Source: Trueperaceae bacterium (lineage in GTDB: Bacteria; Deinococcota; Deinococci; Deinococcales; Trueperaceae). Taken from it: DNA of 64,000 bases. Shown here piece after piece: positions 38,576 through 58,440 of this stretch (within the stretch, counting starts at the first letter, position 1; every line of letters begins with the position of its first letter). The stretch spans positions 2,144,001 through 2,208,000 of the forward strand of contig OZ243913.1 in assembly GCA_965213705.1 (NCBI GenBank). Direction: 5' to 3'. Position numbers and translations under genes: made by a program. Under the pieces are notes generated by a model. That model did not search any database. It had not been told where the DNA came from and saw only the letters and a program-made list of their open reading frames with translations.

Positions 38576-38616
38576 CGTCCTGTAGGGGTGGGTTCTGAAC
38601 CCACCCCTACAGGACG
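38576..38616. repeat. GTAG-type REP-like perfect palindrome, possible terminator after icd
   Basis: CGTCCTGTAGGGGTGGGTTC-T-GAACCCACCCCTACAGGACG. Confidence 0.7.
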
Positions 38617-43321: not shown

Positions 43322-44570
43322 TCGTTCATCCCCACGCACGTGGGGAATAGGTCATCCTTTTCCTTCCTTGTCTTCGCTTTTACGGTTCATCCCCACGTGC
43401 GTGGGGAACAGCTCCTAACACAACCGACTTGTTGGCCCAAAGACGGTTCATCCCCACGTGCGTGGGGAACAGGTTCGCGTGGCAATGGCCCGAGTAGCGC
43501 CACTCGGTTCATCCCCACGTGCGTGGGGAACAGTCTTTTGGTTTGTAAGTTTGTAGTGCTGTCTACGGTTCATCCCCACGTGCGTGGGGAACAGATTACC
43601 AGCCCCAGGCTGCTAGAGTTGTCTTGCGGTTCATCCCCACGTGCGTGGGGAACAGCGTCGTCTAAATCCTTGCGCTGCTTGAAGGCGCGGTTCATCCCCA
43701 CGTGCGTGGGGAACAGACTTGTACCGATGCTCGCCAAAGCAAGCTCGGCGGTTCATCCCCACGTGCGTGGGGAACAGGTTGAAGGCGTCCATCGCGCCCG
43801 ACGTGACGGCGGTTCATCCCCACGTGCGTGGGGAACAGGTCTCGCGTGGCGGGCTGCTGGGCTTCTTAGGCGGTTCATCCCCACGTGCGTGGGGAACAGG
43901 TCCTCTACTATCGGCAGCTGCGGCAGGTTGGCGGTTCATCCCCACGTGCGTGGGGAACAGGGGTCGGGTGGGTCGGAAGGCAAGGGCAACTTCGGTTCAT
44001 CCCCACGTGCGTGGGGAACAGGGTAGCGGAAAGCGGGCCGCTGTGAATTGTTCCGGTTCATCCCCACGTGCGTGGGGAACAGCCCACCAAGAACGAACGC
44101 GGCACTCGCGTCTGCGGTTCATCCCCACGTGCGTGGGGAACAGGTTGGCGAGCACCGGGTCGACCTCGGTCGGGTCGGTTCATCCCCACGTGCGTGGGGA
44201 ACAGGCGGGTGTACTTGCTTGCGGCTGGTGCCATTACGGTTCATCCCCACGTGCGTGGGGAACAGAACAGGGTCACACCAATAACTTCGAACTCCCACGG
44301 TTCATCCCCACGTGCGTGGGGAACAGGACACGGTAGTTGCGGCGGTTCCCCAGTATCTCGGTTCATCCCCACGTGCGTGGGGAACAGTGAACGACATAAA
44401 AAACAAACTCGAACACGCTCGGTTCATCCCCACGTGCGTGGGGAACAGCTTGCTGTTGTGGTCGGCGTGGTCGTACTTCTCGGTTCATCCCCACGTGCGT
44501 GGGGAACAGGGCGTCGTTTATGCTATTTAGGACGGTTCCGACGGTTCATCCCCACGTGCGTGGGGAACAG
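43322..44570 (-). CRISPR. Type I-E CRISPR array 1: 21 repeats, 20 spacers of 32 nt
   Basis: Repeat (+) CGGTTCATCCCCACGTGCGTGGGGAACAG with 61-bp period; degenerate terminal repeat at 43322; leader on the right. Confidence 0.98.
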
Positions 44571-48289: not shown

Positions 48290-48867
48290 CGGGGTCCTTT
48301 CTGGTTTTCTTTTGTGTCGGAGGTGTCGGGAACATCGGGGTTAAAGCCGTAGTACTGTTGCGCCCAGCGGCGCTGAACATAGCGGCTCTGGTTTTGCCAG
48401 CCAAAGAGGTCGCGGAGTAGTGCCGCGTAGTTTAGGCCGATGCCCTCAGCTTTTAGCAGGCTGACGAGTTGGCGCAAGTGGTAGACGAGCTGTTTCTCTT
48501 CTTCCGCAGCCAAGAGCGCGAGAAAACGTTTCTCCAGGCTCCCGCTCTCGCGCCTGTGACTAAGAACCGCCATTGCCTTGCCGAAACCCCCCTGAGAGGC
48601 GGACTCTGGATGAGAGGCGTAGAGCCCCGCGACGAGGTAGAACATGGCGCGTCGCCAGTAGCCTGTGCTTTCGTCCAGCGTTGCGACGAACGGCTCGACG
48701 TAGGGGAATGCTGGAACATGCGTGCCCAGGTCGAAGCTGAGACTTTTTCTAAGCTCGGCCAAGTGTTGCCGTTTGGCTCCCCGCGTTTTGGCCGGGTTGA
48801 GCTTATCCAGGCGATGAATAAAGCGTTCGGCTACATCTGTTCGTGTGCTCGAGGGCGTGTCTGTCAT
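48286..48867 (-). CDS. cas11: Cas11 (Cse2/CasB)
   Basis: [32 protein letters not shown] and WA..YY motifs. Confidence 0.94.
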
Positions 48868-50378
48868 GCTGCCTCCTGTGGGGCTGGCCCAGTGGTTTCT
48901 TCGCGCAGGCGTTTGAGGTAGGTGTTGACGACCTTGCTCGCCTCAGCCCCGGCCCGCCAGGCGCGCTCGTTTTCCCCGGCGCTCTTTAAGGCAAGCTCCC
49001 AGGCTTCGCGCGTCACGGCGGTGATTTGCCCCAACCACCAACTGAACCGCTCCTCAAAGGTTTGAGTCTCGAAGCGCTCCAGCAGTTCGGGAAAGCGGGT
49101 CTCGAGCCTGCTCCAGTAGTGCATACTGGCGGGAAAGCTCGAGGCTAAGTTGCGAACATCTGCCGGGTCGGGTTTGCGTTCGCCGACGCTCAGTAACTTC
49201 TCCGCCAGGCGCTGCGTCGCGCCGTAGAGGGTGCGCCCGCCGTCGTCGGCGTACTCGAGCAGCCGCTTCATACCGGCGTAAGCTCCCGGTTGGAGGAGCA
49301 CCTGCGGTACATTGAACTGCTCGGTGCGCCACAGCACGATTTTGGCTTTGTCGTTGCTCAGGCCGGAAATTAATAGGGTGAGGGGGTCGCTGCGCTCGAG
49401 GACTGCGTACAGATTGCTCGCGTGTTTTACTGTCTGAGGCGCAAAAAACTTTTTGCCTTCAGGATCATCAGGATGAGGTATAAGTGCGTGAAAGTCCCGC
49501 CAGAATGCCTTGTATTTGTTGAAGGATACCGGCAGAAGCCCCCGCTTGTCGTCCCTGCGGTAGGCCAGCATGGGGTCGAGACTGCCTTCACTATCAAACT
49601 TGATTCCTGCCGCATAATGCAGCGCCGACACGGGCTTGCCTTCCTCGGGTTCTTGCAACTTAACGATGCGCGTCAGCCAGGTGTAACGCTCGGTGAGCCC
49701 TCTCGCGCCGCGCGGTTTGGCGGCTTTTACCGCCGCGCTCTTTGGTGTTCCTTGCTCCCAAATAGGCGCGTCATCCTCATTCGCCTCTTCAAAGTAAGGA
49801 ACGAGGTTGAGAACCAGTGTCTCGAACAGATTGCGACCTTGCGGCAGCACGAACGCCGCGCCGCCTGCCGGGCTGGGGCTGTAGCCCGCGCCCTCGGGGA
49901 TGGCGGTCATCTGCCGGGTCACGAGCAGTTGCGCGATTTCGGCGTGCGTCAACTCCGGCGGGTCGGCCTCCGCGGTGTGGTCGAAGAGGAGTTTGTTCGT
50001 GCCGCTGGCGAGTTCGGCTGCGAGCCGGGCGACCCCAGACACCTTATCTTCCGAGTCTGGCACCTGATAGAAGGGCCTTTCAGGGTGGAACAGGTCGAAG
50101 CGGTCTTGCCAGTGCTTGAGATAAGCGCCGACGCGCTCCGCCGGGAACCGACCCTGTTCGAACAACTCGACCCCTTCGTCGGTAGTGCGTGGCCCGTCCA
50201 GCGCCCGGTACAGCACAGCTAATAAAAAGCGGTGCAGCGCCGGGAGTACGGCGGGGGAGGAGTGGACTAGCCGCGCGTAGCGGTGGGCGTTTAACAAAAC
50301 CCCCTTTAGCGAGTCCTGGCCTAGCGAGCCGTCTGAGTTTTCGACCGGCAGCCAAGGTTCATGGACGAGGTTAAACAT
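48864..50378 (-). CDS. cas8e: Cas8e (Cse1/CasA)
   Basis: FNLVHEPWLPV, RFDLFHPERPFYQ, LFDH and GRNLFETLVLN motifs; AAGGAGG RBS. Confidence 0.95.
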   Translation of the reverse strand: MFNLVHEPWLPVENSDGSLGQDSLKGVLLNAHRYARLVHSSPAVLPALHRFLLAVLYRALDGPRTTDEGVELFEQGRFPAERVGAYLKHWQDRFDLFHPERPFYQVPDSEDKVSGVARLAAELASGTNKLLFDHTAEADPPELTHAEIAQLLVTRQMTAIPEGAGYSPSPAGGAAFVLPQGRNLFETLVLNLVPYFEEANEDDAPIWEQGTPKSAAVKAAKPRGARGLTERYTWLTRIVKLQEPEEGKPVSALHYAAGIKFDSEGSLDPMLAYRRDDKRGLLPVSFNKYKAFWRDFHALIPHPDDPEGKKFFAPQTVKHASNLYAVLERSDPLTLLISGLSNDKAKIVLWRTEQFNVPQVLLQPGAYAGMKRLLEYADDGGRTLYGATQRLAEKLLSVGERKPDPADVRNLASSFPASMHYWSRLETRFPELLERFETQTFEERFSWWLGQITAVTREAWELALKSAGENERAWRAGAEASKVVNTYLKRLREETTGPAPQEAA

Positions 50379-50435
50379 TTCGGCCTCCTTTCAAAAGTAG
50401 TGTAAGAGGGGGGTGCGTCATGTAGTGACGTCGCC

Positions 50436-50470
50436 AAAATAAAGAAGTGAGGCGCGGGATGCGCCTCACT
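50436..50470 (-). terminator. Intrinsic terminator upstream of cas8e
   Basis: AGTGAGGCGC-ATCCC-GCGCCTCACT followed by TCTTTATTTT on the minus strand. Confidence 0.85.
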
Positions 50471-50820
50471 ACGGCTAACGGTCTACGTCATTATCGAACG
50501 AGCTTGTCAGCATCAACTTTTGCCACTCTCCGTGTCGAAGGTTCAAGGCCGACTGAAAGTGGGGCCAGAACTTCCATAGCACGGGGCGGTCTCGCTCATC
50601 AACCTGGTATAGGCTGTCTCTAAAGGCTTGATAGGTTGCGTCATCTATGTCAAGCAGAGCACCACATCCTCACTTTGGTGAGAGGATGCCCTTCACGCTT
50701 GACCCCCACGTGACCAAGATTTAGAGCGGGGGTGGTAGATTAAGGTGAAGGACATATTCCTTCGGTGAAGAGCGAGATGACTATTGGAGTAGGAGTCTCG
50801 CTCTTCTCGTTTGCGGTCAC
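50436..50820 (-). ncRNA. Predicted ~380-nt structured transcript (CreT/CreP-like candidate)
   Basis: Bounded by a sigma70-type promoter and a terminator; several hairpins; contains a 20-aa ORF (50755-50693) and a 64-codon open frame (50669-50475) with no canonical start near its 5' end. Confidence 0.55.
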
Positions 50821-50826
50821 GAGCTT

Positions 50827-50888
50827 ACAGTAGCTCGAGTTCTTTCGAAAGTCAATGATATTTATCCTCTTGCAGAGGAGTTGTACTT
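50827..50888 (-). promoter_or_regulatory. Promoter with adjacent AAG-PAM protospacer for the mini-array spacer
   Basis: TTGACT (50855-50850), 17 bp, TACTGT (50832-50827); protospacer 50885-50861; PAM AAG at 50888-50886. Confidence 0.8.
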
Positions 50889-50908
50889 AACTTCATCAGG
50901 TGACGTCA

Positions 50909-50990
50909 AATATAAACCCCACATTAGTGGGGAAGTTTTTTACCTTATGCAAAGGACTTGTATGGTTCATCCCAACGTTGTCGGGAAAAT
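50909..50990 (-). CRISPR. Degenerate mini-array: two pseudo-repeats and a 25-nt spacer (creA/creR-like)
   Basis: Minus strand: ATTTTCCCGAC-AAC-GTTGGG-ATGAACCA, spacer TACAAGTCCTTTGCATAAGGTAAAA, AACTTCCCCAC-TAAT-GTGGGG-TTTATATT. Confidence 0.85.
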
Positions 50991-51051
50991 ACTTCATTAT
51001 CTATTCTACCCATAACCGTTGTACCTACGTGGTGCAGGACTATCTTTTGGG

Positions 51052-51450
51052 CTACCCTGTTACTCCCTCTGCTTTTTCATCGGGCTTTATGCTGAGCGGT
51101 TTTGGCGCGGTAGCTTCAAGCATTGGTACAAACAGCGTAGCGACCTCATCACGGGTCTCGGCATCTTGCAAGGTGATGTCAAGACGGCACCCTACCGCGT
51201 GGGCGTAGCGGCTGAGCACCTCGAGCGCTAATGCCGTACCCTCGACACTTTCAATCTGCGATACGCGTGGACGCGTCACGCCCATGCGCTCGGCAACCTC
51301 ACGCTGGCTCAAACCCTTAGCCTCACGCATAGCGCGCAGCGCCGCTCCAATCTCTTCGTTAGCGACCTCACGGTACAGAGCAGCGTAACCGGGGTCTTGC
51401 AAAAACTCTTTGCTTAGGTCGCTCGCTCGTTTCAAGGGACGTTTTGGCAT
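51052..51450 (-). CDS. XRE-family HTH antitoxin (HigA-like)
   Basis: LRAMREAKGLSQREVAERMGVTRPRVSQIE...L.RYA.AVG. Confidence 0.9.
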   Translation of the reverse strand: MPKRPLKRASDLSKEFLQDPGYAALYREVANEEIGAALRAMREAKGLSQREVAERMGVTRPRVSQIESVEGTALALEVLSRYAHAVGCRLDITLQDAETRDEVATLFVPMLEATAPKPLSIKPDEKAEGVTG

Positions 51451-51454
51451 GGCG

Positions 51455-51814
51455 TTACTCCTTGTTATATTCCTCGTAAGCTGCCAAAGCTTTCCTAATA
51501 AGCTTACGGTCAGCTTGGTTCTGCTGCTTCACCTCTCCCGCGGCGGCGATGAATATATTTTTGTCCTGTTGCCAGTAATAAATGCGTACGGCGTTACGTC
51601 CGGTTTTGCCGCGCAGTTCGTAAATCGGCCCATCTATATGACTGACGTAGGGAAACGACAGTGTTTTACCTTTGTCCTCGAGCAGCGCGATGAGCCAATC
51701 GACTTTCGCAGAAGCTTTAGGATTGGAGCGTCTAAGCACCTTGCGCCACTCCCGGAACTCGGAGTAACCGTTTTCGTCCTCGTACTCATAAACAATGTAC
51801 GGTGTAGAACTCAC
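51455..51814 (-). CDS. RelE/ParE-superfamily toxin (HigB/Gp49-like)
   Basis: LLEDKG..LSFPYVSHIDGPIYELR......RIYY..KQ motif; toxin gene precedes the antitoxin. Confidence 0.88.
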   Translation of the reverse strand: MSSTPYIVYEYEDENGYSEFREWRKVLRRSNPKASAKVDWLIALLEDKGKTLSFPYVSHIDGPIYELRGKTGRNAVRIYYWQQDKNIFIAAAGEVKQQNQADRKLIRKALAAYEEYNKE

Positions 51815-54900: not shown

Positions 54901-55617
54901 GCGCAGATACACCGTAGCAACCTCAGCTTCTTGCCCGCCCATCACGCCCCAGGCAGCGCTCAGATATTCACTCGGCACAAAGGTTTCAGGAACAATGTAG
55001 CTGGTTTCCAAAATCCGAACATCGCTCATCCGCGAGAGCTTGAAGGTGAGGACTCGGTCGAAGCTACATTCTTTGCCGATGGCGTACAAAGCCAAGTTGT
55101 CGCGACTGACCTCGATCAAATAAGTTTCCAGCTCGCGCCACTCTGCACGGTTGGGCTTGTCAGCCGTAGTGTATTTGAAACGCAGAACTCTGCTCTCAAA
55201 CCAAGCCCGCGCCACAAACTCCAAGGCTCGGTCGTCGCTGGAACGCACTTTCAGGTCTTGCGCACTTGCCGCCGCGATTCCCTTGGCAGGTTCGGGTAGC
55301 AGTGACGCCAGCTTCTCCAACGCCGAGCGGTAGTAAAGGTTTCGAGTGGGTGAGTGGTGATACAAAAGCCTTACCGCCGCGTGGACTGCAAGCCCTTCGA
55401 CAGCGTTGAGCGACGAACCCGTCGGCGTGAGACGGTGGCGGAAATCCTCTGAGGTTTCGATAGCACAACCGCTCTCACGCAGCGTCTGAATGTCGCGCTG
55501 GATGGTTCTGACCGGCACGCCGTAGCGCTGGGCAAGTTCCTTGATGGTGTACGGCTTTAGCCGCAACAGTTCAGGCAACTCCGCCAAGCGCCGAGCTTTA
55601 CTCTGCGTCCGCGTCAC
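51916..55617 (-). CDS. cas3: HTH-WYL-WCX regulator fused to Cas3 (HD nuclease + SF2 helicase)
   Basis: Residues 1-~315 carry HTH (ELAQRYGVPVRTIQRDIQTL), TFKLSRM and WVQSWGPRVDVLAP. Cas3 follows with LWAKS, HLLDV, LHDIGKA, HHG, APMGEGKTE, DEVH, SAT and QRAGRMHRH. Single uninterrupted frame. Confidence 0.93.
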   Translation of the reverse strand: MTRTQSKARRLAELPELLRLKPYTIKELAQRYGVPVRTIQRDIQTLRESGCAIETSEDFRHRLTPTGSSLNAVEGLAVHAAVRLLYHHSPTRNLYYRSALEKLASLLPEPAKGIAAASAQDLKVRSSDDRALEFVARAWFESRVLRFKYTTADKPNRAEWRELETYLIEVSRDNLALYAIGKECSFDRVLTFKLSRMSDVRILETSYIVPETFVPSEYLSAAWGVMGGQEAEVATVYLRFKPEAAARIREGGYPNLVLKEELADGSLEVEIKVGTDNAGFPREILPWVQSWGPRVDVLAPKALRERWLSEASAVALQHPHLKTRLASVNDAPKGHTEPMTNLSAKAAALWAKSGEDEQGYSLVGHLLDVAAVAQVLLEREPPQTLRLYAEDLGLEPGDAKRWIAALTGLHDIGKATPAFQRQWEPGRLVVEAAGLTFSKGDKGTAHGKLSQKILQTELKTYGLGRNLVAQVADAVGAHHGLRTAKGDLSDNVIPKQDMGDDAWQETRQEVLTEFLKAVEVVQISPPTTTALTGQGFIRLAGLTSFADWIGSTVDFFPTDRKVINLREHFLDSLLKARKALDKIGWERREPLAAEPRAFNTIFSFEPNGLQAHIVDLVEKTHKPSLIIIEAPMGEGKTEAAFYAHVTLQRQLGHRGLYVALPTQATGNAMFERTKDLLGTFERDAPPDLQLLHGASLLNDAYATIQVKDVDGVDNKEGEVWARTWFTSKKRALLSENGVGTVDQALLSVLNIKHQFVRLWGLGNRTVVLDEVHAYELYTSKLIERLVRWLHALGSSVIIMSATLPAAKRLDLVKAFGGGEAEESVSYPRITQVLGGKTKEYSFSVREQKPIDLKRVSLGLETVANLLTNLVTDGGCAVAILNTVQRAQALYSLLGEGESLETGKRLPDDTEVYLFHARYPAAERQKREQAVLEKFGKNGERPAKAILIATQVVEQSLDLDFDVMVSDLAPVDLLLQRAGRMHRHERERSATHASPVLYVAGLTDAETLPDISGESGEYFDRIYEAFTLYMTWWTLADKEVIALPEDFEPLVKAVYGEPDVTALPGFAREVVEQSRANQEEVVQLHKRKAHDNKTVVALPKDYAGIDGVAKDILAEDDEDPSIHEHYRPMTRLGDPSVTVIPLHKKDDKLYLEPSYETEIVLNKEPSWQAARTLYLQHLKLSRKGLVFELVKHPVPAWQKQPLLRYCFPLIFEGGVAVVGKLTVRYDDALGIVYE

Positions 55618-56038
55618 CCACCCTCTTTTCTCCCCCCTTTACCTCCCACAGCACCGTGACCCCTGCAAACTTCTCAAATTCCGAGTCACGGCTGACGAGC
55701 GGTAAGTCCTCGACCAGCGCCTGCGCCGCCAAAGCTCGGTCAAAGGGGTCGCTGTGCTCGTGGGCCAACTCTCCTTCTTTCAGCGCGTGAACGCTGCTGA
55801 AAGGCAAGTCCGTAAAGCTGTACTGCGCCAGGCGACGATGGTAGTTGTGCCACAAGGATTCAGCTTGGGGCAGTTTGCCAATCCGCACCTTGATAGATAG
55901 CTCCCAAGCGGTAATAGCTGAGGTGTACACTTGTCGGTCACGTTCACGGAGCAAGGCTAGAATGCTCTCCGGCAACATTTCAGGGCTTACGCTGTACCAC
56001 AGCAGCACGTGGGTGTCGAGCAAAACCCCTTTACTCAT
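55598..56038 (-). CDS. vapC: PIN-domain toxin (VapC family)
   Basis: LLDTHVLLW, SAITAWELSIK..IGKL, HSDPFDRALAAQA and LVSRD motifs; overlaps the start of WYL-cas3. Confidence 0.93.
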   Translation of the reverse strand: MSKGVLLDTHVLLWYSVSPEMLPESILALLRERDRQVYTSAITAWELSIKVRIGKLPQAESLWHNYHRRLAQYSFTDLPFSSVHALKEGELAHEHSDPFDRALAAQALVEDLPLVSRDSEFEKFAGVTVLWEVKGGEKRVGDADAE

Positions 56039-56046
56039 TGAGCGAC

Positions 56047-56301
56047 TTACTCATCGCTGCGCAGTTTGGGGTTGTGCCAAGCGTCCAGATTTTCCAATGG
56101 GCGCAAAGACTCTTCGACAAACGTCTCATCGACGTCTTGCCGGTCGAGACCGACCGGCCGCAACGCCCCCGGTCCCTCAACCGGCACGAGCCGCACGAGG
56201 GGTTTGCCGTTACGGGCCACGACGACCTCGTCACCGGCAAGAGCCTGCTCGATAAGTTTAGAGAACTGCGTTTTAGCTTCGTGCATGTTGACTTGGGTCA
56301 C
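56047..56301 (-). CDS. Phd/YefM antitoxin
   Basis: VNMHEAKTQFSKLIEQA.AGDEVVVARNGKPLVRLVP. Confidence 0.93.
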   Translation of the reverse strand: MTQVNMHEAKTQFSKLIEQALAGDEVVVARNGKPLVRLVPVEGPGALRPVGLDRQDVDETFVEESLRPLENLDAWHNPKLRSDE

Positions 56302-56358: not shown

Positions 56359-58376
56359 AGACTCATCCCCATGTGCGTGGGGCCGTCCGCGTATCCCGGT
56401 TCATCCCCACGTGCGTGGGAAACAGAGCGCTAGCGCGTCGGAAATGGAGAGCTGCAACGGTTCATCCCCACGGGTGTGGGGAGTAGCGCATCAGCACGCA
56501 GAAATTGCTTATCGGCAACGGTTCATCCCCACGGGTGTGGGGAGTAGGTGCAGGGTAGACTTCATATCGGTTTCCTTCCGGTTCATCCCCACGGGTGTGG
56601 GGAGTAGCGGAGGCGGGAGAAGTGGGGCAGGGTCCAGACCGGTTCATCCCCACGGGTGTGGGGAGTAGGGCGAGTACGCCGCGGCTGCCGAGACGCTGCC
56701 CGGTTCATCCCCACGGGTGTGGGGAGTAGCCGGGTGCCGGCCAGCAAGCTCGGCATCGACACGGTTCATCCCCACGGGTGTGGGGAGTAGTCAGGAGCAA
56801 GCCTTCTGGCTGTGGCTGTCCTCGGTTCATCCCCACGGGTGTGGGGAGTAGTTTGCGAGGATGGCTTTTCTCTAGCCAGACACCGGTTCATCCCCACGGG
56901 TGTGGGGAGTAGGACGATGTTGGCCGACGACTTTGCCGCGGTCGCGGTTCATCCCCACGGGTGTGGGGAGTAGCAGATATGGTTGAACCAGCTCTCTATC
57001 CCGTACGGTTCATCCCCACGGGTGTGGGGAGTAGTTCGACAGCATTCACCGTCACGAAAAACGGCGCGGTTCATCCCCACGGGTGTGGGGAGTAGGTCCT
57101 TTAGATTAACGGTCTAAAGGTAACGCCCGGTTCATCCCCACGGGTGTGGGGAGTAGAAACCGTTCCCGACATGGGCGCGCTGTGGGCGCGGTTCATCCCC
57201 ACGGGTGTGGGGAGTAGTTTGGCCTGGGTCTCAGTGAAGGCCTCCCTTGCGGTTCATCCCCACGGGTGTGGGGAGTAGCGCCGACGCGAGTTTGCGAAAT
57301 TGTTCGATAACGGTTCATCCCCACGGGTGTGGGGAGTAGGGGGTGTTGACACCTGAGCCCGCCCCGGTCTACGGTTCATCCCCACGGGTGTGGGGAGTAG
57401 CTTATGGACTTCTCACACTCCGCGCATGACGCCGGTTCATCCCCACGGGTGTGGGGAGTAGGGCATCGACACCAGCCGCTCTCAGGCCGACGCCGGTTCA
57501 TCCCCACGGGTGTGGGGAGTAGGACGAGACCAAGCTCAATACGCTGCACGAGGACGGTTCATCCCCACGGGTGTGGGGAGTAGCCCTACACCGAGCACAT
57601 GCTCGAGCGCACCCGCGGTTCATCCCCACGGGTGTGGGGAGTAGTCAAGTTTCGACATGTTGCGCGCTGCTGATGTCGGTTCATCCCCACGGGTGTGGGG
57701 AGTAGGTGGCTGCTCATGGGCGTGGTCGCCTCGCTGACGGTTCATCCCCACGGGTGTGGGGAGTAGCTTTGGTCGTGCGCGTCCTCTCGCTCTTTTAGCG
57801 GTTCATCCCCACGGGTGTGGGGAGTAGGCCCAAAGCGCCCTGCCGCCTGACGTGACCACGGGTTCATCCCCACGGGTGTGGGGAGTAGGGCAAGAATTTC
57901 GGCTTTGTGCTCGGCGGTCTCGGTTCATCCCCACGGGTGTGGGGAGTAGATGTCATACTGGTAATCGCTCATCCCCGCAGCCGGTTCATCCCCACGGGTG
58001 TGGGGAGTAGAAGGGTGAGCTTGCCGAGTATGTCCAGGATGACGGTTCATCCCCACGGGTGTGGGGAGTAGGTGGGCGCGGCTTTTCTTGTCCATCACCT
58101 CGGCGGTTCATCCCCACGGGTGTGGGGAGTAGCGTATCCGCTCCCCGCGTCGTAGCCTCTAAAACGGTTCATCCCCACGGGTGTGGGGAGTAGGCAGGGC
58201 TTCGTAGAGTTCAGCCCAATTCATACGGTTCATCCCCACGGGTGTGGGGAGTAGCTCCTTCCGGGGTTGCTGACGCAAATGCGCGACGGTTCATCCCCAC
58301 GGGTGTGGGGAGTAGCAGGGCGGGGCAGGGCTGAAAGTCTTTTTCACCGGTTCATCCCCACGGGTGTGGGGAGTAG
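56359..58376 (-). CRISPR. Type I-E CRISPR array 2: 32 repeats of type B plus 2 older array-1-type repeats at the trailer
   Basis: Repeat (+) CGGTTCATCCCCACGGGTGTGGGGAGTAG from 56458 to 58376, 61-bp period with one 60; array-1-like repeat at 56397 and a degenerate one at about 56359. Confidence 0.98.
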
Positions 58377-58440
58377 ACTAGACCCAGACAGAAAAACTAA
58401 GGCTTGATGCTACCTAAGTATCTTTCTAAAGTTGTCAATG
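58377..58440 (-). promoter_or_regulatory. Leader of array 2
   Basis: AT-rich, TTGACA on the minus strand, motifs shared with leader 1. Confidence 0.8.

Follow-up and report, generated by a model that had tools for sequence, protein, structure and literature searches.

What does a CRISPR mini-array of two degenerate repeats do inside a type I-E locus, and which gene lies behind the promoter at which its single spacer points? The question is raised by a 64,000-nt stretch of the genome of a Trueperaceae bacterium (contig OZ243913.1, positions 2,144,001 to 2,208,000 of the forward strand; hereafter the window). A preliminary description of it, made from its letters alone, had placed two degenerate repeats on the minus strand between cas3/higBA and cas8e and proposed that their RNA guides Cascade to silence the adjacent promoter. 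Our comparative analysis makes it very probable that the mini-array guide steers Cascade to a site flanked by the protospacer adjacent motif (PAM) AAG, next to the -35 box of this promoter (here P_X), thereby occluding it. The promoter appears most directly to serve a small open reading frame (ORF), here called X, rather than cas8e.

The mini-array and its target

The two repeats are present base for base where they had been placed (coordinates are collected in Table 1). For the first, PsiR1, the repeat and its handle were borne out, while the start given as 50990 proved 1 nt short of the 29-nt register, which begins at 50991. Its stem requires a G-U pair that can form on the minus strand only, as had been claimed, and the second repeat, PsiR2, likewise lies where reported and keeps the 5' stem of the array repeat. 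The pseudo-spacer between them has 25 nt, compared with 32 nt in 51 of the 52 canonical spacers, and by Cas6e rules the mature RNA would run from 50970 to 50917 (8 + 25 + 21 = 54 nt). The features that mark crRNA (CRISPR RNA)-like mini-arrays such as CreR and CreA were all found here: two degenerate cognate repeats with a PsiR1 handle and a PsiR2 stem, intact cognate Cascade and Cas6 genes, and a partial, seed-anchored match at a PAM-flanked promoter site. By every feature testable from sequence, the guide is of this known kind. Rfam returned no match for the window, nor for 14 cassette loci. The canonical arrays of the window (43322-44567 and 56363-58400, with 21 and 33 repeats) have repeats that differ at 5' and loop bases, and the pseudo-repeats are marginally nearer to array 1 than to the other array.

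As the preliminary description had it, the spacer matches the target at 19 of 25 positions (mismatches at 6, 11, 16, 17, 21 and 22), AAG precedes the target, and 5 nt separate it from the -35 box of P_X. Nowhere in the 4.25-Mb genome does the spacer match better, the next best (18/25) occurring at four sites, none of them with AAG. Of 20,000 dinucleotide-shuffled versions of the spacer, 4 gave a 19/25 match somewhere in the 673-nt gap upstream of cas8e, and none did so with AAG and the seed. The -35 box of P_X is kept in the closest relative examined (locus L017), and a -35/-10 pair stands beside the target in most relatives. A second AAG-flanked perfect 10-nt seed match lies within a long reading frame at genome position 2029438-2029450.

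Covariation of guides and targets

We searched 364 Deinococcota genomes with Cas8e, of which 105 matched, and examined the region upstream of cas8e at 101 loci from 98 of the matching genomes. Pattern matching over the 90 loci oriented first yielded 22 mini-arrays (a duplicate was dropped and a canonical array left out); two more, in L117 and L123, were found by eye once a profile of X pointed there, giving a total of 24 and showing that the pattern detector can miss mini-arrays. Cas8e scans of metagenome and genome contigs added one useful locus.

L017 keeps the gene order of the window but has another leader, another target and a wholly different spacer. This spacer, of 32 nt, matches the AAG-flanked target of its own locus over 19 consecutive bases, 28 nt ahead of the -35 box that the locus shares with the window. 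With AAG required, 19 of 21 spacers reached 9 or 10 points out of 10 against their own region, compared with 4 of 420 swapped pairs, all 4 among three kindred spacers. With no PAM rule imposed, the best spacer match was AAG-flanked in 21 of the 23 different Deinococcota mini-arrays upstream of cas8e (the others being ATG and ATC), and mismatches fell on position 6 in 18/23, position 12 in 15/23 and position 18 in 16/22, with 0-2 at positions 1-5 and 7-10; kindred loci among these are not independent, though their spacers differ. AAG together with a 6-nt mismatch periodicity is the pattern predicted by the geometry of the Cascade R-loop. Targets occur on both strands, most of them touching or overlapping a -35 box. 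The covariation check that the preliminary description had itself put forward was thus passed, in L017 and in 21 of 23 loci, and it supports the proposed guidance of Cascade to the adjacent promoter; processing of the RNA and repression of the promoter are presumed.

A weak case among the mini-array loci is L048 (G122:C9). Between its cas3 and cas8e, a weak AAG target adjoins the promoter of a HigB/RelE-like gene that carries a frameshift, with an antitoxin-like gene upstream of the array; on this sequence, a type II toxin is possibly under guide control there.

A small protein gene behind P_X

Although the targeting of a promoter was supported, the preliminary description overlooked the output: P_X appears most directly to drive a small, terminator-closed ORF and not cas8e. 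The anatomy runs from P_X through a structured leader and X to an intrinsic terminator, beyond which cas8e has a candidate promoter of its own; transcription is probably divided accordingly, with cas8e driven separately from a palindrome promoter that the HTH-WYL regulator fused to Cas3 probably reads.

Judged by its pattern of substitution, X is a real protein. Its ratio of nonsynonymous to synonymous substitution (dN/dS) is 0.09 in the comparison with L017 and lies at 0.12-0.17 in another three pairs, with three further pairs saturated; the database homologues P0001 and P0002 start at the same residue. X is amphipathic, with a grand average of hydropathicity (GRAVY) of -0.73 and a net charge of -4. 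A small acidic helical ORF occupies the X slot at most other mini-array loci; these X-like ORFs span 45-89 aa and frequently end in L-x-x-E-x-x-L-x-x-x-G-x-[LY]-D.

The X profile matched 18 of the 24 loci that have a mini-array and none of the other 77. Thirteen of the 18 were in the profile and one is a duplicate of a member, the held-out loci being L117, L123, L022 and L081 (E 3e-6 to 0.014). Run over the 364 genomes, it gave 17 matches at E<=2.4e-4, all immediately upstream of cas8e, and two of these were held out, each of which then proved to carry a matching mini-array; 9 weaker rows were set aside (7 within long frames, plus 2). X is a small protein gene behind the targeted promoter and confined to the gap between cas3 and the effector genes, as in the CrePA systems discussed below. 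A guide without an intact X was met in L060 (no X), L026 (X truncated) and L022 (X out of frame with its Shine-Dalgarno sequence, SD), and no X without a guide was found among the loci examined. Synonymous divergence is 1.05 in X, far above that in cas8e (0.35) and higB (0.16), which fits an exchangeable module.

Gene callers often misannotate X as an ORF of 130-140 aa spanning the mini-array, which hides both. A search for a longer form of the protein returned only frames extended across the mini-array, and P0003-P0005, considered as homologues, were rejected as repeat artefacts. Protein database homologues occur in Truepera radiovictrix (P0013/P0019), Thermus thermamylovorans (P0014) and Deinococcus spp. 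(P0037, P0038). No X was found in JGI metagenome contigs, viral contigs, or phage or plasmid records. Fold searches gave no support for a Rop-like identity (an acidic two-helix protein beside an antisense RNA), and a homodimer prediction for X of the L063 subfamily scored 0.36, below the 0.42 mark.

Other small ORFs that the X profile does not match occupy the same slot in L110 (356-496), L115 (5705-5842) and L051, and L110 and L115 keep the antisense unit described below. In L018, L057, L062 and L063 (4/4), a stop-free frame begins at an ATG that overlaps the stop codon of cas3 and continues across mini-array, target and promoter as far as X. This frame survives indels of 3 and 12 nt, shows little codon-position bias and has no counterpart in the window. 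It possibly reflects translation guarding against polarity, or a long form of X destroyed by Cas6e cuts.

A candidate separate promoter for cas8e

The candidate cas8e promoter consists of a palindrome followed at 11 nt by a -10 box, and this is the only exact site of its kind in the genome. The palindrome was found upstream of cas8e in 28 of 101 loci, with a -10 spacing of 11 nt in 28/28 and, in the stretch examined, a WYL match near 23 of the 26 loci scored. Because 22 of the 28 loci are without the cassette and the other 6 have it inserted upstream, the cassette appears to be an accessory insertion upstream of a self-sufficient cas8e promoter. The palindrome is likely, from these sequences, to define a WYL-activated promoter class of Deinococcota type I-E systems, of which we found no description in the literature.

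Palindromes upstream of cas8e were noted in the window, L021, L023-L026, L054 and L069-L092. The palindrome also occurs between the WYL part and cas3 (L024:3789, L026:4625), and a transposase-like insertion, read by eye, lies between cas3 and the cas8e palindrome promoter at L024:6740-7880. In the window, a copy with one mismatch lies at 50893-50907, immediately upstream of the PAM; it has no -10 box and is absent in L017.

The leader and a predicted antisense RNA

Type I toxin-antitoxin loci such as hok/sok and ldr/rdl combine a long structured leader and a small ORF with a short cis-antisense RNA that has its own -10 box and terminator, and the toxin is usually a small, hydrophobic membrane protein. 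The window resembles them in its structured leader, its small ORF and a predicted cis-antisense RNA; it differs in that X is acidic and not hydrophobic, in the lack of an Rfam match, and in that its transcription is under predicted Cascade control.

The leader keeps its fold in L017 although its sequence is largely replaced. Across the loci, leaders form a long first hairpin. In both closest loci, an AUG within a hairpin opens a frame of 20-21 codons in which no tandem rare codons were seen. A predicted antisense unit, in which a -10 box leads into an RNA of 60-85 nt that carries a terminator-like hairpin, was present in 15 of 17 leaders, compared with 5/17 on the sense strand and 34/204 shuffles; the strand comparison is the fairer control because shuffling destroys hairpins. 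With the hairpin preserved, 12 of 16 loci had TANANT at a distance of 27-41 nt from the hairpin, against 0.01-0.14 per locus in shuffles. Since the automatic hairpin picker took the wrong stem in several loci (L097, L115 and L117 among them), we regard the count over 17 leaders as the main test. Of the two strands, the antisense one gives the better fold in 13 of 16 loci (G-U pairs, 61 vs 21), and in four loci of one subfamily, 5 pairs show two-sided changes around an invariant UUGGCG loop. In 5/16 loci the predicted antisense RNA extends over both the SD and the start of X, and four loci whose leader is only 6-23 nt long carry X (truncated in one) without an antisense -10 box. On the strength of these sequence comparisons, we lean towards a short cis-antisense RNA from the leader acting as a second brake on X.

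Relation to known systems

Guide RNAs of this kind are already published for type I-E. CreR of Salmonella enterica, standalone by definition, represses the casA promoter (Liu et al., 10.1101/2023.03.10.532045), and type I-E mini-arrays, as described by Shmakov et al. (10.1101/2023.03.03.530964), have toxin-antitoxin cargo behind them, with enrichment in I-E. Both share with the window two degenerate repeats, a PsiR1 5' handle, a PsiR2 3' stem, a partial match, AAG and the mismatch at position 6, as well as a place between cas3 and cas8e and a target beside a promoter. Unlike that of CreR, the window promoter drives a conserved terminator-closed ORF, and cas8e has a second candidate promoter.

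The closest counterpart in output is CrePA of Acinetobacter type I-F (Shu et al., 10.1101/2024.01.05.574328), where CreP is located about 120 bp behind the CreA target in the cas3-csy1 gap. There, as in the window, a CreA-type guide lies in the gap between cas3 and the effector genes, and its target is followed at about 120-200 bp by a small protein gene nearly confined to that slot. CreP is a 103-aa protein with a phage-derived KilAC domain and demonstrated toxicity, whereas X, at 45-89 aa and with no known domain or phage match, is a candidate toxin; moreover, CrePA is type I-F, and the window is type I-E with a predicted antisense RNA in addition. The KilAC or phage-derived character of CreP has no parallel in X, for which Pfam, NCBIfam, PHROG, phage, plasmid and viral-contig searches gave no match. 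With the CreTA RNA toxins (PMC8501985, PMC10097628) the window shares a two-PsiR guide, pairing over 10-17 nt and a structured transcript behind the repressed promoter; CreT, however, is an RNA with a mini-ORF, a strong initiation signal and often tandem rare codons, whereas X is a 60-codon ORF under amino-acid selection. The cas8e palindrome resembles the DriD operator (PMC9186387) in its adjacent WYL-family HTH regulator and its inverted CGAC/GTCG arms 7 nt apart; it differs in taking the place of the -35 region, with 11 nt between it and the -10 box, in having a regulator that is often fused to Cas3, and in that its binding is putative.

In the literature found, which did not extend to subscription papers or the locus tables of Shmakov et al., neither X nor the antisense layer nor any of these Deinococcota loci was described. 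Truepera, Meiothermus, Deinococcus and Thermus go unmentioned in two supplementary PDFs of PMC10120712, although the large locus tables of that paper may list these mini-arrays. The X gene and its apparent antisense brake therefore look undescribed, while the guide itself is of a known kind.

Proposed mechanism and alternatives

We propose the following model. Cas6e would cut the two pseudo-repeats to release the 54-nt guide, and Cascade carrying it would bind the AAG site by the -35 box of P_X with pairing sufficient for binding yet too short and broken for Cas3, so that the promoter is occluded. When P_X does fire, it would transcribe the structured leader and X and stop at the terminator, cas8e being driven separately from the palindrome promoter, and the cis-antisense RNA would absorb leaky X mRNA and so act as a further lock, of the sort found in type I toxin-antitoxin pairs. 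If Cascade were lost or blocked by an anti-CRISPR, a harmful X would be released, leaving the cell addicted to Cascade. X may thus be a toxin that punishes the loss of CRISPR immunity. We regard it as an evenly balanced judgement whether X is such a CrePA-like, Cascade-repressed addiction toxin; for now it is a candidate whose toxicity we infer from its conservation, its exchangeability, its absence wherever no guide is present, its decay while the guide stays, and its apparent second brake. The fuller proposal of a phylum-wide, double-locked addiction module, in which an antisense-controlled small toxin was captured between cas3 and cas8e under a Cascade guide, is tentative and, taken as a whole, rather improbable.

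Several observations weigh against this model. P_X agrees with the consensus at only 8 of 12 positions and is absent from the list of a promoter scan; the terminator after X was found in 6 of 16 loci and not in the other 10; and 18 of 24 mini-array loci have no exact palindrome promoter, so that P_X probably also drives Cascade there. The X subfamily of the window aligns with others at an hhalign probability of only 0.6-6% (two other subfamilies align at 85%), and the X-like ORFs may therefore be several families in one slot. The start codon (CTG) and SD of X are poor. Pfam, PHROGs, NCBIfam and PADLOC hold no X family at a curated or useful level, the ESM Atlas and the Foldseek pdb and viral sets gave no informative match, the best VIA-align Z scores (6.0 and 5.4) correspond to generic helices, and X has no membrane helix or fold pointing to a toxin. 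The predicted antisense RNA of the window begins some 90 nt upstream of the start codon of X and cannot cover the SD, covering instead the start of the upstream ORF (uORF), and its U-tail is weak; more generally, the antisense -10 pattern was partly chosen after matches had been seen, no -35 consensus was seen, and the evidence comes from about six lineages.

The main rival is plain autorepression as in CreR, with P_X being the promoter, or one promoter, of the Cascade operon, X a passenger or leader gene, and read-through setting the level of cas8e. Published I-E mini-arrays hit the cas8 promoter region via AAG, a single CreA repressing both toxin and cas promoters is on record, and both the loci in which no terminator was found and L060, with its guide but no X, fit this arrangement. 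In the window and L017, however, a strong conserved terminator and a second promoter stand between X and cas8e, and a passenger needs neither purifying selection, nor strict linkage to a guide, nor an antisense unit; as the sole explanation we hold autorepression to be unlikely, though it may act in addition where no terminator intervenes. Were X instead a non-toxic feedback regulator that, with Cascade scarce or blocked, raises cas transcription or the activity of Cascade/Cas3 through contact with RNA polymerase, the WYL regulator or a Cas protein, its confinement to I-E loci, its small, acidic, amphipathic character and, unlike CreP, its lack of a detectable phage source would be accounted for. 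Yet no binding partner is indicated, three loci have lost X while keeping the guide, and most I-E loci have no X, which makes such a role distinctly improbable.

A slighter chance attaches to the leader RNA as the harmful or active product, with X secondary, as in CreT. The kept fold of the leader and the frame opened by its hairpin AUG in both closest loci speak for this, a hairpin and a start codon being the active parts of Acinetobacter CreT (PMC10097628), whereas the lack of a strong SD or tandem rare codons, the four X loci with barely any leader, and the better folding of the hairpins on the antisense strand all speak against it. That the repeats are array debris, or that spacer and target are a duplicated transcription-factor operator with short inverted repeats and no guide function, would fit the 6-bp inverted repeat in the target and the weak fold of PsiR1 (z -1.6). 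It is nevertheless hardly credible, as different spacers track different AAG targets with 6-nt periodicity on either strand, a pattern that only R-loop geometry explains. The HigBA-like pair was also considered as the target of the guide and was ruled out, the spacer having no match at its promoter.

CRISPR-repressed toxins account for the persistence of costly CRISPR-Cas loci and for the way in which hosts counter anti-CRISPRs, but they are tiny, diverse and hard to find, and those that we met in the literature belong to types I-B and I-F. The present locus leads to about 18 candidate type I-E genes with matched guides, targets and promoters, and as their carriers include cultured organisms, whether X is a toxin is directly testable. 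An antisense layer, if real, would add a threshold to the circuit that is not described in the literature found. Were the whole double-locked model true, the module would fire only when the failure of Cascade out-titrates the antisense RNA, while Cascade itself would depend on a promoter of its own, sensed by WYL. Such a module would act as a thresholded anti-anti-CRISPR switch and be, within that literature, the first case of a type I-E system safeguarded by a protein toxin.

Features of the locus

Table 1. Positions of the mini-array, its target, the X unit and neighbouring genes in the window
Feature	Position	Strand	Basis or detail
PsiR1, degenerate repeat giving the 8-nt 5' handle	50963..50991	-	19/29 vs array-1 repeat; hairpin -7.4 kcal/mol, z -1.6
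Pseudo-spacer (guide), 25 nt	50938..50962	-	Sequence
PsiR2, degenerate repeat giving the 3' hairpin	50909..50937	-	17/29 vs array repeat; hairpin -11.4 kcal/mol, z -2.6
Candidate -10 box of the mini-array transcript	51003..51008	-	Putative; hexamer inside a block kept in L017
AAG PAM (50888-50886) and target (50885-50861)	50861..50888	-	Best match in genome; shuffles; covariation
Target promoter P_X, TTGACT-N17-TACTGT	50827..50855	-	-35 50855-50850, -10 50832-50827; sequence
Structured leader, about 165 nt	50658..50820	-	Hairpin 1 50806-50767; fold same in L017
uORF, 20 codons	50755-50693	-	SD poorly spaced, 2 nt from AUG
Predicted cis-antisense RNA	50736..50815	+	Extended -10 50733-50741; RNA about 50748-50815; 5' hairpin and terminator-like hairpin; -30.3 kcal/mol, z -4.3
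ORF X, 60 aa, acidic, helical, candidate toxin	50475..50657	-	CTG start (GTG in L017); dN/dS; homologues P0001, P0002; model
Intrinsic terminator after X	50438..50470	-	10-bp stem and T-rich tail; z -7.1; stem identical in L017
Candidate separate cas8e promoter	50399..50430	-	Palindrome CGWCA-N5-TGWCG (50430-50416), 11 nt, -10 box (50404-50399)
cas8e (cse1), first gene of the operon	48864..50378	-	Pfam
HigBA-like type II toxin-antitoxin pair (51814-51455, 51450-51052)	51052..51814	-	Pfam Gp49 and HTH_3
HTH-WYL-WCX regulator fused in frame to the N-terminus of Cas3, 1233 aa	51916..55617	-	Pfam HTH_11, WYL, WCX, Cas3_HD, Cas3 C-terminal

The source genome is a single 4.25-Mb contig with 61% GC, and contigs of two runs of one sample, possibly the source of the assembly, showed no differing letters. 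On the minus strand, the locus reads: array, vapBC-like pair, HTH-WYL-WCX-Cas3, HigBA-like pair, the gap, the cas8e-to-cas2 operon and a second array. The operon order is cas8e-cse2-cas7-cas5-cas6e-cas1-cas2 with every frame intact, and a Trueperaceae relative has a Cas8e 89% identical to that of the window. In many relatives the WYL regulator and Cas3 are separate frames or divergent genes. Type II toxin-antitoxin pairs flank cas3 on both sides within the CRISPR locus, namely a PIN-domain toxin with its upstream partner (~55598-56300) and the Gp49/HTH_3 pair (51052-51814), which we take to be HigBA; the latter has a promoter-like site of its own at 51858-51830. Elsewhere in the window, a 20-bp perfect inverted repeat at 38576-38616, downstream of the isocitrate dehydrogenase gene, resembles a repetitive extragenic palindromic (REP) element or a terminator.
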